Below are positions 38,846-59,043 of a stretch of 64,000 bases of DNA, in pieces. A program made the translations under genes and the position numbers. Under the pieces are notes generated by a model. The model was not told where the DNA came from, made no database searches, and worked only from the letters and a program-made list of their open reading frames with translations. The stretch lies in contig CAWGLD010000007.1 of the NCBI GenBank assembly GCA_963823335.1, forward strand, positions 160,001-224,000, read 5' to 3'. Position 1 is the stretch's first letter. Every line of letters begins with the position of its first letter. Origin of the DNA: an uncultured delta proteobacterium (GTDB lineage: Bacteria > Desulfobacterota > Desulfobacteria > Desulfobacterales > B30-G6).

Positions 38846-38921
38846 GCGCCCGTAGCTCAGTGGATAGAGCGTCAGCCTCCGGAGCTGAAAGCCGCTGGTT
38901 CGATCCCAGCCGGGCGTACCA
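38846..38921 (+). tRNA. tRNA-Arg(CCG)
   Basis: Cloverleaf GCGCCCG...CGGGCGT-ACCA; anticodon arm TCAGC-CTCCGGA-GCTGA; GGTTCGATCC T-loop. Confidence 0.96.
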
Positions 38922-39733: not shown

Positions 39734-39782
39734 TACGCCTCAGACTATAACATGTCCTACAGCCCTTTGAATTCTGGTAGTA

Positions 39783-39953
39783 TCTCCAACAATCCGGTAG
39801 ATATCAGACCCCTAATATTTTACCGGTGTGTGAAAATTATCACCACCGACCGAATCTTGCACTGATAGACCCTACCTTGGCATCGTGGGCATAGCCAGAT
39901 GGTATCGGCAATAATTTCGTTGAATTTGATAACTGGACCTATCTCCATGTATC
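39783..39953 (+). repeat. 171-bp array repeat R1
   Basis: TCTCCAAC...TACCGGTGTG...AATCTTGCA...GGTATCGG...TGATAACTGGA..ATCTCCATGTATC. Confidence 0.93.
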
Positions 39954-44606: not shown

Positions 44607-44663
44607 ATGTTTATCTACTTAGACACAGAAACCACTGGCTCAGGATCAGAAGACAGACTTTGC
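44607..44663 (+). pseudogene. 5' stub of a DEDDh 3'-5' exonuclease gene
   Basis: MFIYLDTETTG ExoI motif, then runs into intron-like sequence. Confidence 0.55.
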
Positions 44664-44816
44664 CATGCCTTCCCCTTAACGCTCACCACAATGGCTCTTT
44701 ACCGATGCAGCTTAAGGTGGTTTGAAGCCTGCTCCTGTAAGCCGACTCCGAGGGGCCTGCCCTCATCTTCTGTGCAGTTACGCACACTTTATATTAAAAG
44801 TGCGCTCGTGGCGCAC
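44663..44816 (-). mobile_element. 5' fragment of a group II intron (part of domain I)
   Basis: Minus strand begins GTGCGCCACG (GUGYG 5' splice consensus), then hairpin GCGCACTTT..AAAGTGTGC; no RT ORF or domain V seen. Confidence 0.65.
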
Positions 44817-47821: not shown

Positions 47822-48118
47822 CAAGCAAAAACTCACAAGTTTTTGTAAAAACTCGAATATTCCCTATATCATCTTGTTGAAACATACTGGTATCCATACG
47901 ATTCGAATCCAACCTCGTCAAGTACCCCACCGGATTGATCAAATCTGGTTAAGTCGACTTCAACATCGAATCCCAAATACATTTGAGTCAATAAGATGAT
48001 AACAATCAGGCAGTTGCATTTCTATCAGCTTAATATTCACACGATTACCCTAAAACGTGTGTTCACGATTGTATACCGCACGCAAAATTTTCATTAGTAA
48101 ATCTGTGATCACTGGTAC

Positions 48119-48289
48119 TCTCCAACAAAGCGGTAGATCTCAGGCCCCTAAAATATTACCGGTGTGCGAAAATAGTCACAACGGGCTAAATCTTTTGTTC
48201 ATAGGTCATTCCTGTGCCCGATTGACATAACCAGATGGTATCGGTAATTTTACCTTAAAAACTGATACTTGGTCTTATCTCCATGTATC
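48119..48289 (+). repeat. 171-bp array repeat R4
   Basis: Colinear with R1. Confidence 0.92.
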
Positions 48290-54376: not shown

Positions 54377-54515
54377 ACCGGATCCTAACATTCGGAGATA
54401 TACAAGTTGTCAGTTGCAGACCGCTCCACGGGGCTGTAACTGTTTTTGATGACACATCACAATTGAATTAGCAGTGAACTTTTAGTTTAAAGAAAAACAG
54501 ACTTTATGTCGTACA

Positions 54516-54686
54516 GCTCCAACAAAAACAAAGATATCAGACCCCCGAAAAATTGCCGGTGTGCGAAAATAATCACAACAGGTCAAATCTTGCATTCATG
54601 GAGCCTGCCATGCTACCGTGGACATTACCATATGATATCGGTAAAATTTGCATCGGGCTTGATAACTGGACTTCTCTCCATGTATC
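54516..54686 (+). repeat. 171-bp array repeat R9
   Basis: Colinear with R1. Confidence 0.93.
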
Positions 54687-55596: not shown

Positions 55597-57216
55597 ATGA
55601 ATTTGCTTCAGAATAGGAAGTACATGACTTTTCGTATCCTTGCCACGTTATTAGGTCTGGTATCTTTTTATTCTTTCTCTGCCGCATCGATTATCATCTA
55701 CCCAACAGGAGCTTGGCAAGCTTCTACTCCTGAAGAACAAGGGATGGAATCTCAAGCCCTTGCTGAAATGATGGAGTACATAAAGAAAAACAGTTTCAAC
55801 ATTGATAGTATATCAGTTGTACGAAACGGTTTTATGGTTTTCGATGCATACTTTTGGCCATTTTCAAAGGGGCAAAAGCATATTATTCATTCATGTACAA
55901 AAAGCATTATGTCAGCATTGATAGGCATTGCTATCGATAAAGGATACATTCAAGATGTGAACCAATCCATTATCGATTTTTTCCCAGATAGAGCATTTGC
56001 GAATAATAGTGACCTTAAAAAGTCCATTACGCTTGAAAACCTACTAATGATGGCATCAGGCTTGAAATGCAGGGACTCTTATCTTTATCGCTGGAAGGGA
56101 TTGTTTGAAATGCGATATAGCAGGGATTGGGCTCAATATGTTCTCGACCTTCCCATGGTTGAGCCTCCAGGTAAAAAGTTTGAATATTGCAATGGAGTCT
56201 CATATCTCCTATCTGTCATTATCCAAAATTCAACAAATATGACAACTTTAGATTTTGCAAGAGAGCATCTATTTGATCCCCTTGGCATATTTGAAATTGG
56301 TTGGGCAAATAGTCCTCAGGGTGTTGATATCGGATATGGTGAGATGTGGTTAAAGCCTCATGATATGGCCAAATTTGGATGGCTATATCTAAATAAGGGA
56401 CAATGGGGCAACAAACAGATAATACCTTCAACATGGGTTGAGGTTTCTACACGTGGGCATATCGATACTACGCTTTTTGATCAATATGGGTATCAGTGGT
56501 GGATCGATTCTGCTGGATATTATATGGCTGTTGGATATAAAGGCCAGCGTATTTTCGTTGTGCCGGAAAAAAATATTGTGGCGGTCTTTACCAGTGATCT
56601 GACCGGCAGGAATAGTTTAGTTTCTAAAAATTTGCTGGACTATTACATAATTCCAGCTGCATCTTCACCTACCGTATTATCACCAAACGTGGAAGAACAA
56701 GCCAGACTGGGTGCATTAATAAATAGTGTCGCCAAGGCTCCATTGGCCGGATTTGTTTGGATTTCAGAAAATAAGGGAATAGCGAAAGATGGTGTTTTTA
56801 AGAGAACAGCATCACCGGCTTTTAAGTTTGAGTATCCATTGGGTAGTAAAAAAATAGCAATTGCCTATCCAAGTCAGATAATGAGAATGAGAACTCCAAG
56901 AGACTTTGAATTTTCTGCCTTTGTTGGTGATATCCCTGAGGGTTTAGAGTTAGAAGACTTCGGGCAAAAATTTTATGCCAAGGAGATAGAGAATGTTGGT
57001 TCAGATATCAAAGTCATTATTAATAAAGAAATCACGCTTAAGTGTGGTACGAAAGCATATCAAACGGAACTTACATGGGTATTGAATAATACTATGCTGA
57101 TAAGGACTTTTCTCGTAACAGCATACAAGGATGGGAAATATGTATTTATAGACGCTCACCCATGGAAAAATGAGAATAACGCTGAACTAATTGTTCAGAG
57201 TTTAATATTTAGATAG
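55597..57216 (+). CDS. Serine hydrolase, beta-lactamase class C-like, with C-terminal extension
   Basis: SCTK (SxxK), YCN, LLMMASG, YGYQWW; start uncertain (55597 or 55624). Confidence 0.85.
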   Translation: MNLLQNRKYMTFRILATLLGLVSFYSFSAASIIIYPTGAWQASTPEEQGMESQALAEMMEYIKKNSFNIDSISVVRNGFMVFDAYFWPFSKGQKHIIHSCTKSIMSALIGIAIDKGYIQDVNQSIIDFFPDRAFANNSDLKKSITLENLLMMASGLKCRDSYLYRWKGLFEMRYSRDWAQYVLDLPMVEPPGKKFEYCNGVSYLLSVIIQNSTNMTTLDFAREHLFDPLGIFEIGWANSPQGVDIGYGEMWLKPHDMAKFGWLYLNKGQWGNKQIIPSTWVEVSTRGHIDTTLFDQYGYQWWIDSAGYYMAVGYKGQRIFVVPEKNIVAVFTSDLTGRNSLVSKNLLDYYIIPAASSPTVLSPNVEEQARLGALINSVAKAPLAGFVWISENKGIAKDGVFKRTASPAFKFEYPLGSKKIAIAYPSQIMRMRTPRDFEFSAFVGDIPEGLELEDFGQKFYAKEIENVGSDIKVIINKEITLKCGTKAYQTELTWVLNNTMLIRTFLVTAYKDGKYVFIDAHPWKNENNAELIVQSLIFR

Positions 57217-57234
57217 ACTGCCGATAGCTGGTAC

Positions 57235-58794
57235 CTTTCCTATAGGTAGATGTTGTGGAGGCGAGCGAGCCCGTAGGGTGTAGCTCGCGGAGTCTCCACA
57301 ACTCTATCGATAGGGGTTTTCAAGCCTTAAATTCCCCCGTAATTATCCAATTCCAAAATAATAAAGGTGAAACTCCCCTGTTTAATGAGCCATCAGGTTT
57401 TGGCCTGTGGCATAATTGATGCGTAGTCTGCAATGAAGCAGCTACAAAACAAAAGGAGTTTCACCTATGAAAAAACGAAACATTTATCAGAATCAAAGTC
57501 AAGATTTACTTAGTCTTTTTGAGGCGGCTGGCAGCAGTGAAAAAGTGATGTGCGTGCCGTTAGATTATGCAAAGAAAGATCATTTGGCGATGTTTTGCAA
57601 TGGGTACGGTGATATTTTGCGAAAACCGTTTTCAGTGAAGAACACGCCAGAAGGCATAGCATACATCGATGATCAGGTAACGCGTTCCTGCCGGCGGCGT
57701 GGCATAAAAAAGGAGCATGTCTTTTTTGGTGGTGAAGATGCCAATTCATTTGCGAAAAATTTTGTCAGCACATTACGAAGCAAAGGCTTTCTTGTTGCCA
57801 ATGTGAATGCGCATGACGCAAAAAAACAGCGTGGGAATCTGCAAGCCAGTACTGATCGAATAGATTTAATGGGCATTGCCACCATGCTGTTGAATTGTCG
57901 TGCCAACTGCGGTCCTGCTCAATCCGGCATCTATCGTAATCTTCGCACCCTTGTTCGCCATCGGCGCAAGCTGGTTCAAATGTTAACTGAAGTAAAAAAT
58001 CGAGTGCATGGAATTGTCGATGAGCTTTTCCCCGGATTCTTAAATGAAAAGAATAGCGGTATCGTTCCGTTTACACAAAGTTCACTATACTTGATGGAAG
58101 ATCGTTTTAGTCCGAAACAGATCCGTCGTCGCAGACGTCAAAAGCTGATCGAAATTCTTAAGCGATTTGGTACTTCAAAGGCTGAGAAAACGGCCGCTAA
58201 ACTTCAACAGTATGCGGCAAATGTACTGCATGCCCCGGTTGAATATGTTGATACAATGCAGCTATCCCTGGCCCAGCATGTCAAACACATAAGGTGTTTA
58301 AAAGAAAGTGTTGCGCAGATGGATAAGGAGATAGCGTTGAATCTGTCACAAACCCAAGGCGCTTTTCTGACAAGTGTACGCGGCATTGGTCTTGTTTTGG
58401 CAGCCGGCGTAACCGCTGAGATCGGAGATTTAAATGAACAAAAGTCTCTCAATAATTTGGCATCCTATTCAGGCATCATCCCGCGTGTTAAACAAACCGG
58501 TGGTACCGATGGCAAAACGTATACAGGACCGGTAGCCACCCTGTCCGTCCGAAAACTAATTATGGCTCCAAGGTACTCTGATCCTGGGATCGCTCAGAGA
58601 TCTCGTCATACCAGTTTGTCAAGATCGGACGTTATGGGCAGGGGTTACCACCTGTTATGCTGAACTTTGAATAACTGAAACTGTGATGGCTAAGACTGGT
58701 TCATTTAAAAGATATCAAAACCGGCCCGGACCGGTACAGGGGAAGTGTTGCCTAAAATTTGCGGAGAATATTGGCTTGACTTTATTCTGGTACT
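57235..58794 (+). mobile_element. IS110-family insertion sequence (probably internally deleted)
   Basis: CT at both proposed ends (57235-57236, 58793-58794); joining the ends gives TTGACT-17 bp-TATAGG. Confidence 0.7.
57467..58663 (+). pseudogene. IS110-family transposase, C-terminus apparently truncated after about 58535
   Basis: DEDD-like LDYAK / GGED / TDRID; RGIGLVLAAGVTAEIGD...LASYSGIIP...QTGG, after which the family-like sequence stops. Confidence 0.8.
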
Positions 58795-58973
58795 CCAACT
58801 AATCCACGGTGAAAGGGGCCTCTGAAAAGCTTTGATACCATACTATCCAGCGAATTCCTGACCTAAAAGGTAAGTCTGTCAATTCAAGTATAAGCCAGGA
58901 CATTGTCAAAAGACGGACATTACATTACAAATTCACCACACAAGATTGACTTGACCTGACACCCTTAATTGAT

Positions 58974-59016
58974 GGTATCTGCAATAAGGCCCGAATGATG
59001 ATTGTCTCCATGTATC
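58974..59016 (+). repeat. 37-bp short site S3 plus TGTATC
   Basis: GGTATCTGCAATAAGGCCCGAATGATGATTGTCTCCA-TGTATC, then the R1/R8-type tail. Confidence 0.75.
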
Positions 59017-59043
59017 GGTAATTGGATATATTTGGTTTCATGC

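Follow-up and report, generated by a model that had tools for sequence, protein, structure and literature searches.

Insertion sequences (ISs) of the IS110/IS1111 type are RNA-guided elements that home to repeats and to cassette recombination sites. IS4321 and IS5075 target the inverted repeats of the Tn21 family, and ISPpu9, ISPpu10 and IS621 target repetitive extragenic palindromic (REP) sequences. Tetu and Holmes in 2008 and Post and Hall in 2009 are said to have described IS1111-attC elements that insert into the attC sites of integron cassettes. Here we analyse an element of this kind in a stretch of 64,000 nucleotides (nt) from an uncultured member of the Desulfobacterales; the whole stretch is called the window, and positions given without a contig name are window coordinates. 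The element occupies positions 57230-58792 and lies in an array of gene cassettes separated by a repeat. The best explanation of the data as a whole, to which we give a probability of about 0.82, is that it is a defective IS1111-like copy of the IS110 family that targets the left edge of the array repeat. The finding is ordinary in kind; the relatives of the element show the repeat targeting unusually clearly. The source assembly (G000) comprises 4.37 Mb in 11 contigs, labelled C1, C4 and so on, and retrieved loci carry L-numbers.

In the IS1111 group, according to PMC11208160 and PMC11187229, the bridge RNA or seekRNA lies in the right end, which PMC11208160 describes as long. Like that group, the present element and its relatives have a recombinase with DEDD and Tnp domains, are bounded on either side by a CT core without further duplication, carry a non-coding RNA with one target loop and one donor loop downstream of the gene, and insert in a fixed orientation into one short sequence. 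They differ in the length of the recombinase (482 amino acids (aa), against the roughly 300-460 aa quoted in PMC11208160), in an NCBIfam score below the cut-off, in having no PDB sequence match and in a long left end (LE, 237 nt) with a conserved hairpin. For the ends, PMC11208160 gives 7-17-bp subterminal inverted repeats, whereas here a terminal palindrome of about 5-6 bp (GGTACC / GGTACT) was noted by eye, without a dedicated search. We place the element in the IS1111-like branch of the IS110 family, as a new and divergent member.

Other comparisons concern the target. With IS4321/IS5075, ISPpu9/ISPpu10 and IS621 the element shares the homing of an IS110-family member to a repeated, protein-bound DNA site, but the target class and the host group are different from these elements and from IS621 at REP sequences. 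Like the IS1111-attC elements, it is a parasite of recombination sites that separate cassettes, inserts in one orientation and has left dead stumps in arrays. Its target is not attC, however: there is no R''/R' hairpin (the repeat consensus folds with -2.15 kcal/mol), the recombinase linked to the array scores below the integron-integrase cut-offs, and the core is a palindrome of arm, 7 nt and arm that goes with an Xer-like recombinase.

Identity and boundaries of the element

The open reading frame (ORF) at 57467-58663 (398 aa) matches the Pfam families DEDD_Tnp_IS110 (PF01548; E 1.2e-18, residues 32-189, profile positions 3-155 of 155) and Transposase_20 (PF02371; E 7.6e-10). These matches bear out the IS110-family assignment made in an initial annotation of the window. 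The second match covers profile positions 3-56 of 87 only, because of an internal deletion; full-length relatives carry PF02371 in their precomputed annotations. A database search with the window ORF returned 1199 homologues, of which the best 120 are mostly 482 aa long and 80-96% identical and cover only 90% of the ORF. The comparison set used below consists of 106 related loci, 26 from species genomes and 80 from metagenome contigs, and all relatives derive from metagenome-assembled genomes (MAGs) and short metagenome contigs. Intact relatives measure about 2.07 kb and combine a 482-aa recombinase with a two-loop bridge RNA downstream of the gene. The source assembly has a single copy with a recombinase gene, that of the window. 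A KQ(S/T)GG motif is found around residues 345-350 of the recombinases, with T in P0006, P0055 and the window copy (at about residue 345) and S in P0103; this may be the place where the serine nucleophile of IS110 recombinases would be expected.

BLAST against full-length loci aligns window positions 58537/58538 with positions 2572 and 3082 of locus L038, which is a single internal deletion (Table 1). The loss comprises some 124 codons at the C-terminus and about 135 nt of the right end beyond the gene, including both target guides. The 482-aa homologues align to only the first ~358 residues of the window ORF, and metagenome contigs with loose ends at 58524-58538 run on into the recombinase C-terminus or the right-guide block. 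Since both the recombinase C-terminus and the whole target-binding loop are deleted, the window copy, as predicted from this loss, is dead and unable to move by itself. Its history would be an insertion at an array core followed by the loss of 510 bp and of one CT at the right tip.

Table 1. Features of the element, its target site and related footprints in the window.
Feature	Position	Strand	Basis or remark
Possible decayed footprint CTGGTAGTAT before CTCCAAC of the first array repeat	39774..39783	+	weak
8-bp IS footprint CTGGTACT before CTCCAAC of repeat R4	48112..48119	+	same 15-mer elsewhere
Left half of target: left arm of array core (..ctgccgatag) and left CT core 57228-57229	57217..57229	+	empty type-A and type-B sites; flank consensus
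LE, 237 nt, non-coding; starts GGTACC; long conserved hairpin (~57239-57314); 3' structure pairs with the ribosome-binding site	57230..57466	+	
TACCTT, candidate -10 hexamer	57232..57237	+	TACNNT conserved; third to eighth LE bases
Truncated recombinase gene, codons 1-357 of 482 (DEDD/RuvC-like domain and first part of Tnp domain)	57467..58537	+	Pfam, homologues, BLAST
Deletion junction, 509-510 bp lost	58537..58538	+	BLAST against full-length loci
ORF tail: right-end RNA sequence read as protein to a chance stop (last 42 codons)	58538..58663	+	
Right-end remnant with donor-binding loop: left donor guide GGTACTCT 58572-58579, inner stem, right donor guide TACCAG 58609-58614 plus 2 nt	58538..58792	+	alignment and consensus fold of 34 right-end RNAs
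TTGACT, -35 hexamer	58776..58781	+	fixed 13 nt from right core in relatives
Right CT core	58793..58794	+	relatives GGTACT-CT-CCAAC; window copy and L019 GGTA-CT-
Right half of target and rest of type-B module: CCAAC, right arm TAATCCACGG (the usual left arm in reverse complement), further core-like motif CTCCATG near 59007	58795..59030	+	

Two placements of the left boundary have to be compared. In the initial annotation the IS begins at 57237 with its core CT at 57235-57236, the target already carries CTGGTAC, the empty site reads CTGGTAC-CT-CCAAC and the joined ends give TTGACT-17-TATAGG. The strings quoted for it are present where it placed them: GCTGGTAC-CT-TTCCTATAGG on the left, with the CT at 57235-57236, and on the right TTGACT (58776-58781), then TTATTCTGGTA, the CT at 58793-58794 and CCAACTAATCC. 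Its right end and right CT are also confirmed by the relatives. For this placement speak the presence of CTGGTAC at both junctions, the three genome sites that read CTGGTACT-CTCCAAC, and a spacing that works out at 17 nt. It implies an empty allele ..gatagCTGGTAC.., as opposed to ..gatag-CT-CCAAC for a left core 7 nt further left, at 57228-57229.

The empty sites, the 106 related loci and the guide RNA all give the latter position. Most of the 69 type-A left ends listed for this genome have the sequence ..ccgtggatat-CTCCAAC, and about 65 of the 69 are without CTGGTAC; the empty type-B sites of this genome and of relatives read ..gttgatgt-CT-CCAACTCATCAACGG, all four again without it. Both types thus share ..gat(a/g)t-CT-CCAAC, and the consensus of the 12-14 nt left of CTGGTAC in occupied sites, aAAACCTnnGATAT, is the sequence found left of CTCCAAC in empty ones. 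Since the empty sites are without CTGGTAC, the left core is the CT at 57228-57229 and GGTAC (57230-57234) is part of the IS. The dinucleotide after CTGGTAC is CT, CA, AT or GT in relatives, and 57235-57236 is therefore not a conserved core. Locus L054 reads left flank, CTGGTACT, CT, GGTACC, a new insertion behind an old footprint, an arrangement that fits only an element starting with GGTACC. The donor guides read GGTACT+CT and CT+GGTA, the latter by the right guide TACCAG, which places GGTA within the element. Finally, TATAGG is not conserved in relatives, where variants include TGTAGA and GAGAGG. In view of these data we regard the placement at 57235-57236 as highly improbable.

As we delimit it, the element is 57230-58792 with one CT on each side, and its empty site would read ..gatag-CT-CCAAC. 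The flank alignment of homologues accordingly upholds the CT cores and the array core as the target, but not the left terminus first proposed, and the reconstructed empty site was in error in assigning CTGGTAC to the target. Its resemblance to repeat R4 is explained by the footprint CTGGTACT that R4 itself carries at 48112-48119. The insertion is not about 20 bp but 12 nt after a stop codon (57214-57216), and the left target half begins 1 nt past this stop codon, which ends an upstream cassette gene of the beta-lactamase family. Across the relatives a CT core is present at both boundaries with no longer target duplication (LT-CT-GGTACC / GGTACT-CT-RT); the left junction of L010 is masked by N. 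Nearly all relatives end in GGTACT-CT, and the window copy and L019 end in GGTA-CT, one CT short.

Bridge RNA guides, target core and junction promoter

The right end of relatives is about 395 nt long and encodes both loops of a bridge RNA of about 190 nt. An alignment of the right ends of 21 relatives contains two blocks that vary together with the flanks. The consensus fold of 34 sequences has two domains, in each of which a stem is followed by an internal loop and then an inner stem; of its 47 pairs, 7 show compensatory changes. This alignment fold was used instead of single-sequence folding because the latter pairs the two donor guides with each other. In the first, or target, domain the 5' side of the loop holds a block such as GTGATACC. 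The 3' side holds a 9-nt block, which is GTTGGAGAG in loci with the right flank CTCCAAC, ATTGCAGAG for CTGCAAT, TGGCAAGAG for CTTGCCA, GGGTCAGAA for CTGACCC, TTTACAGAG for CTGTAAA and AAGGCAGAG for CTGCCTT. In the loop of the second, or donor, domain the invariant GGTACTCT and TACCAG match the donor junction GGTACT-CT-GGTA. The window copy has kept the donor loop and lost the whole target loop.

The match between guides and flanks was scored directly. Over 7 informative bases the right target guide agrees with the right flank at a mean of 6.69 in 68 loci (60 perfect, 64 with a score of at least 6, 11 distinct guides), against 4.26 for shuffled pairings (standard deviation (sd) 0.19, maximum 4.93). 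For the left target guide the score is 6.1 of 8 over 71 loci, against 4.34 (sd 0.12) after shuffling. The target guides specify GTGATAT-CT-CCAAC, which is the left arm plus the spacer of the array repeat core.

In IS621, the IS110-group element whose bridge recombinase has been solved structurally, the left guides, as described in PMC11208160, run in top-strand sense and include the core, and the right guides are complementary to the core plus 4-7 nt; PMC13626964 reports that a handshake guide favours insertion. The present family has the same layout as these two accounts give for IS621, with 8-9-nt left guides in top-strand sense, right guides complementary to the core and 4-7 nt, and a repeated chromosomal target; on the 3' side of the right target guide, a handshake dinucleotide pairs with the last two donor bases. 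In contrast to IS621 as described there, which has its RNA in the left end, the RNA is in the right end, the donor site is palindromic around the core, and no sequence similarity is detectable with phmmer. By this layout, the donor loop (GGTACTCT / TACCAG) would read the joined ends of the element itself, GGTACT-CT-GGTACC. The target loop would read the left arm and core (e.g. GTGATAC-CT) with one side and the core and spacer (as the reverse complement of CT-CCAAC) with the other, and an extra AG 3' of the right target guide would act as the handshake dinucleotide for the last CT of the element. The guide layout therefore implies that the family inserts in a single orientation and splits the palindromic core, with which each inter-cassette repeat starts, at the boundary of left arm and 7-nt spacer.

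The target itself is a small part of the repeat. In type-B modules the first ~25 bp are palindromic, with the arm CCGTGGAT.., the 7-nt spacer CTCCAAC and the reverse-complement arm, and the core CT is formed by the first two spacer bases. The window stretch that shows this site is 58783-58812. Only these ~25 bp of the ~230-nt module are read by the IS. Each module finishes about 215 nt further downstream with another core-like motif (..TAT-CTCCATG-TATC; near 59007, for instance), and in many relatives the arm motif recurs 35-45 nt past the core. Hidden Markov models (HMMs) of the type-A and type-B modules match just 6 of 64 right flanks of relatives, and what the targets have in common is therefore the short core rather than the module in its entirety. 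The class-1 flanks of L038, L040, L054 and L055 have the short core and the second arm motif 35-45 nt downstream. In this genome all seven IS left ends adjoin an array core, at the repeat edge; together with the guide matches to the right flank in the 68 related loci, this substantiates the proposal in the initial annotation that the IS targets the array repeat. A genome-wide logo of CTCCAAC sites failed, because an unrelated family of word repeats (CCCTCCAACC..) swamps the signal.

The initial annotation had also proposed a promoter at the junction of a circularized element. Its count of TTGACT, 17 nt and TATAGG is arithmetically right for the ends that it chose; with the true ends the spacing to TATAGG is 24 nt. 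The concept would stand with another candidate -10 hexamer, TACCTT. Among relatives the -35 is TTGACT in 36 of 68, TTGATT in 24, TTGAAT in 6 and otherwise in 2, and the candidate -10 is TACCTT in 40 of 69, TACCAT in 15, TACATT in 6 and another TACNNT in 8. If intact relatives form circles, their joined ends would give a junction promoter TTGACT-17-TACCTT. In the window copy TTGACT is 11 nt rather than 13 nt from the right core, since one CT is lacking, and the spacing to TACCTT would be 15.

Several results weigh against the reading as a defective, repeat-targeting IS1111-like element or leave parts of it thin. The NCBIfam model NF033542 gives 130.8 bits for a full-length relative, below its curated cut-off of 140, phmmer matched a full-length relative to no PDB sequence, and at E<=1 no Rfam family was found for the window element or a full-length relative; membership of the family thus rests on Pfam and architecture. 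The right guide fits poorly in 4 of the 68 loci (L019, L022, L071 and L114), and for loci of target class CTGACCC the best fit of the left guide is obtained after a shift of 1 nt. No orthologous empty allele was found: the left-flank cassette has no usable match in four related genomes. The LE hairpin was not called by a simple terminator scan. No circle junction was seen in the 106 related loci or in the assembled contigs of four metagenome runs, and no joint across the IS or excision joint in the contigs of the same runs, observations that have no bearing on absence. For this check 22 runs were listed, the best with 0.49 of the sampled words, and four (X1, X2, X3 and X5) were compared as assembled contigs. 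The one joint reported in these contigs (57627 to 57714, one contig, side 26) is uninterpretable.

Stumps and footprints in the array

The LE aligns over its full length with relatives. Within its first ~85 nt lies the hairpin, with a minimum free energy (MFE) of -93 kcal/mol (z -8.5) and with compensatory changes in 15 of 26 consensus pairs in 40 sequences. A reading of this hairpin as a terminator was dropped on the result of the terminator scan mentioned above. We also considered a left-end bridge RNA of the IS110-group type, as GTTGGGGAG in the hairpin resembles a right guide, and rejected it because this sequence and the flank show no covariation.

The first 73-130 nt of the LE recur at six array sites of this genome (C1:117034, C1:1248259, C1:1771640, C4:170952, C4:534709 and C9:36078). 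All six of these stumps start with left flank-CT-GGTACC and end with X-CT-CCAAC. For the stumps with a known parent sequence, X-CT falls on a CT of the LE, at 57304 twice and at 57326 twice; CT occurs at 13 of the 237 LE positions. Locus L031, from another genome, has an 858-nt stump that ends with ..TTCG-CT-CCAAC. The shortest remnant is the 8-bp footprint CTGGTACT, found before CTCCAAC at three sites (C1:155577, window 48112 and C11:7369), where about 0.008 such 15-mers are expected by chance. A fragment of 239 bp at C4:494382-494620 is 100% identical to 57274-57512, which is part of the LE and the first 15 codons; neither side has a recognisable junction.

Stumps and footprints would be explained by mis-registered excision, in which the right-end core is joined to a cryptic CT. 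The footprint is what would be expected to remain if the 7-nt repeat at one IS end recombined with that at the other. According to 10.64898/2026.08.31.748434, excision of IS621 needs only donor-arm recognition, which makes a loose choice of partner plausible. Not all remnants conform to aberrant excision of this type: two of four stumps inspected in other genomes (L034 and L035) do not end with CT-CCAAC, and L033 combines an internal deletion with a truncation of another kind. The cryptic sites of the stumps resemble neither target nor donor half-sites.

Two other origins can be considered. In the first, the IS proper begins at about 57328 and was inserted beside one of the hairpin pieces of 73-130 nt, which would themselves be a separate miniature element or a naturally occurring form of the repeat. 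C1:117034 and C1:1248259 indeed look like empty sites for such an IS, with 100% identity up to 57327 followed by CTCCAAC. The summed contig depth in four sediment and aquatic metagenome runs, which is 28-672 for the hairpin bin 57222-57308, 0.15-10 for the flanks and 0-171 for the rest of the IS, would also be in agreement with it; by these depths, stumps or relatives with the hairpin seem to outnumber whole elements by far. However, wherever the left end of a relative is on the contig, the hairpin stands at a fixed distance from the recombinase gene. The pieces form a nested series of 5 lengths with one common left end, C4:534709 reaches 30 nt past 57327 and L031 reaches 858 nt, into the gene, and the donor guide reads the terminus on the hairpin side. 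A separate miniature element is thus very unlikely.

In the second, the remnants would have been made by the Xer-like tyrosine recombinase of the array itself, acting between the surviving half-core (CTCCAAC and right arm) and secondary sites that share only CT. Integron integrases recombine at secondary sites. The crossover at exactly the boundary of arm and spacer of a palindromic core, the association of the Xer-like gene with repeat modules, and cryptic sites that match none of the IS guides are all consistent with this origin. Yet the occupied site is without its left arm, and the footprint CTGGTACT is accounted for by the 7-nt repeat at the IS ends, which is read by the donor guide of the IS. 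We consider this origin rather unlikely but a serious alternative, and prefer faulty excision by the IS recombinase.

The cassette array and its recombinases

The array repeat is present in about 90 copies in the genome, in co-oriented arrays on several contigs. The array of the window starts just past a tRNA gene (38846-38918, directly upstream of the first cassette and of the first repeat at 39784) and separates unrelated genes. A speculative part of the initial annotation was that an IS110-type recombinase helps to build it. The CT core at the edge of the conserved spacer of the repeat would be in line with this, as would the sediment lineages that the IS family and the repeats share. The distribution among 201 sampled genomes of the order argues the other way. 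With a transposase threshold of E<=1e-60, the type-A repeat is found in 8 of the 201 genomes and the transposase in 6, and both together only in the source genome; both genomes of the same genus have the repeat without the transposase. Co-occurrence by itself is weak evidence, as IS copies are easily lost from MAGs. In the source genome about 90 repeat matches stand against one dead IS, and the donor motif GGTACT-CT-GGTACC is absent from the repeats. The full-length repeat module, moreover, holds an Xer-like recombinase gene, which is present in 6 of the 8 genomes with the repeat. We give almost no credence to the IS recombinase as array builder.

The full-length module is seen at C1:163752-164854 (L135 5752-6854, array strand minus), where an Xer-like tyrosine recombinase gene on the opposite strand interrupts a type-A module between model positions 73 and 119. 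The order is left half, small hairpin, the gene and the right half, which is the upstream region of the gene. The open frame of 277 aa scores 102 bits with NF040815 (cut-off 220) and 34.6 bits with the integron-integrase model (cut-off 265). In the +1 frame, an ATG that has a good ribosome-binding site is followed after 17 codons by an A9 run (L135 5890-5960), and the 277-aa frame opens right after a TGA that overlaps this ATG. L137, L139 and L140 have the same split layout, which gives 4 of 7 loci inspected; L136 has the left half with a truncated Xer-like gene, and L138 and L141 have no module match. The gene was found in all five repeat-bearing genomes tested and in 39 of the 201 genomes. 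On the present data the Xer-like recombinase is a better candidate for building the array than the IS. Because full-length modules contain its gene, the common repeats of ~230 nt look like gene-less derivatives of an element that carries the recombinase.

In a wider and more tentative picture, which we hold possible rather than probable, marine Desulfobacterales would possess a hitherto undescribed cassette-array system, run by the Xer-like recombinase, on which the IS lineage lives as a dedicated parasite. Sister lineages would have re-programmed the 9-nt right guide to host-specific spacers (CTCCAAC, CTGCAAT, CTTGCCA and others) while keeping the left-arm guide, and the stumps and 8-bp footprints would be a record of half-site, mis-registered excision by a bridge recombinase. 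As products of faulty excision, they bear on how bridge recombinases excise. The large clade of 482-aa bridge recombinases has a readable natural guide code with 11 right guides and may interest those who mine for programmable recombinases; it may already figure in the supplementary tables of natural IS110 targets in PMC11208160. The palindromic core linked to an Xer-like recombinase points to an integron-like cassette system worth a study of its own.

The array has some further features. Group IIC introns target attC sites, and at 44653-44764 on the minus strand the cassette array of the window has an Rfam match to domains D1-D4 of group II introns (RF01999, 98 bits). A phage-type integrase (398-aa frame) is encoded at C7:240497-241693, about 4.7 kb past the last repeat. 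Two cassettes of the same array (window 54457-54516 and C7:227866-227925) have near-identical final 60 nt before their repeats, with 1 difference, which suggests a recent duplication of a cassette within the array.

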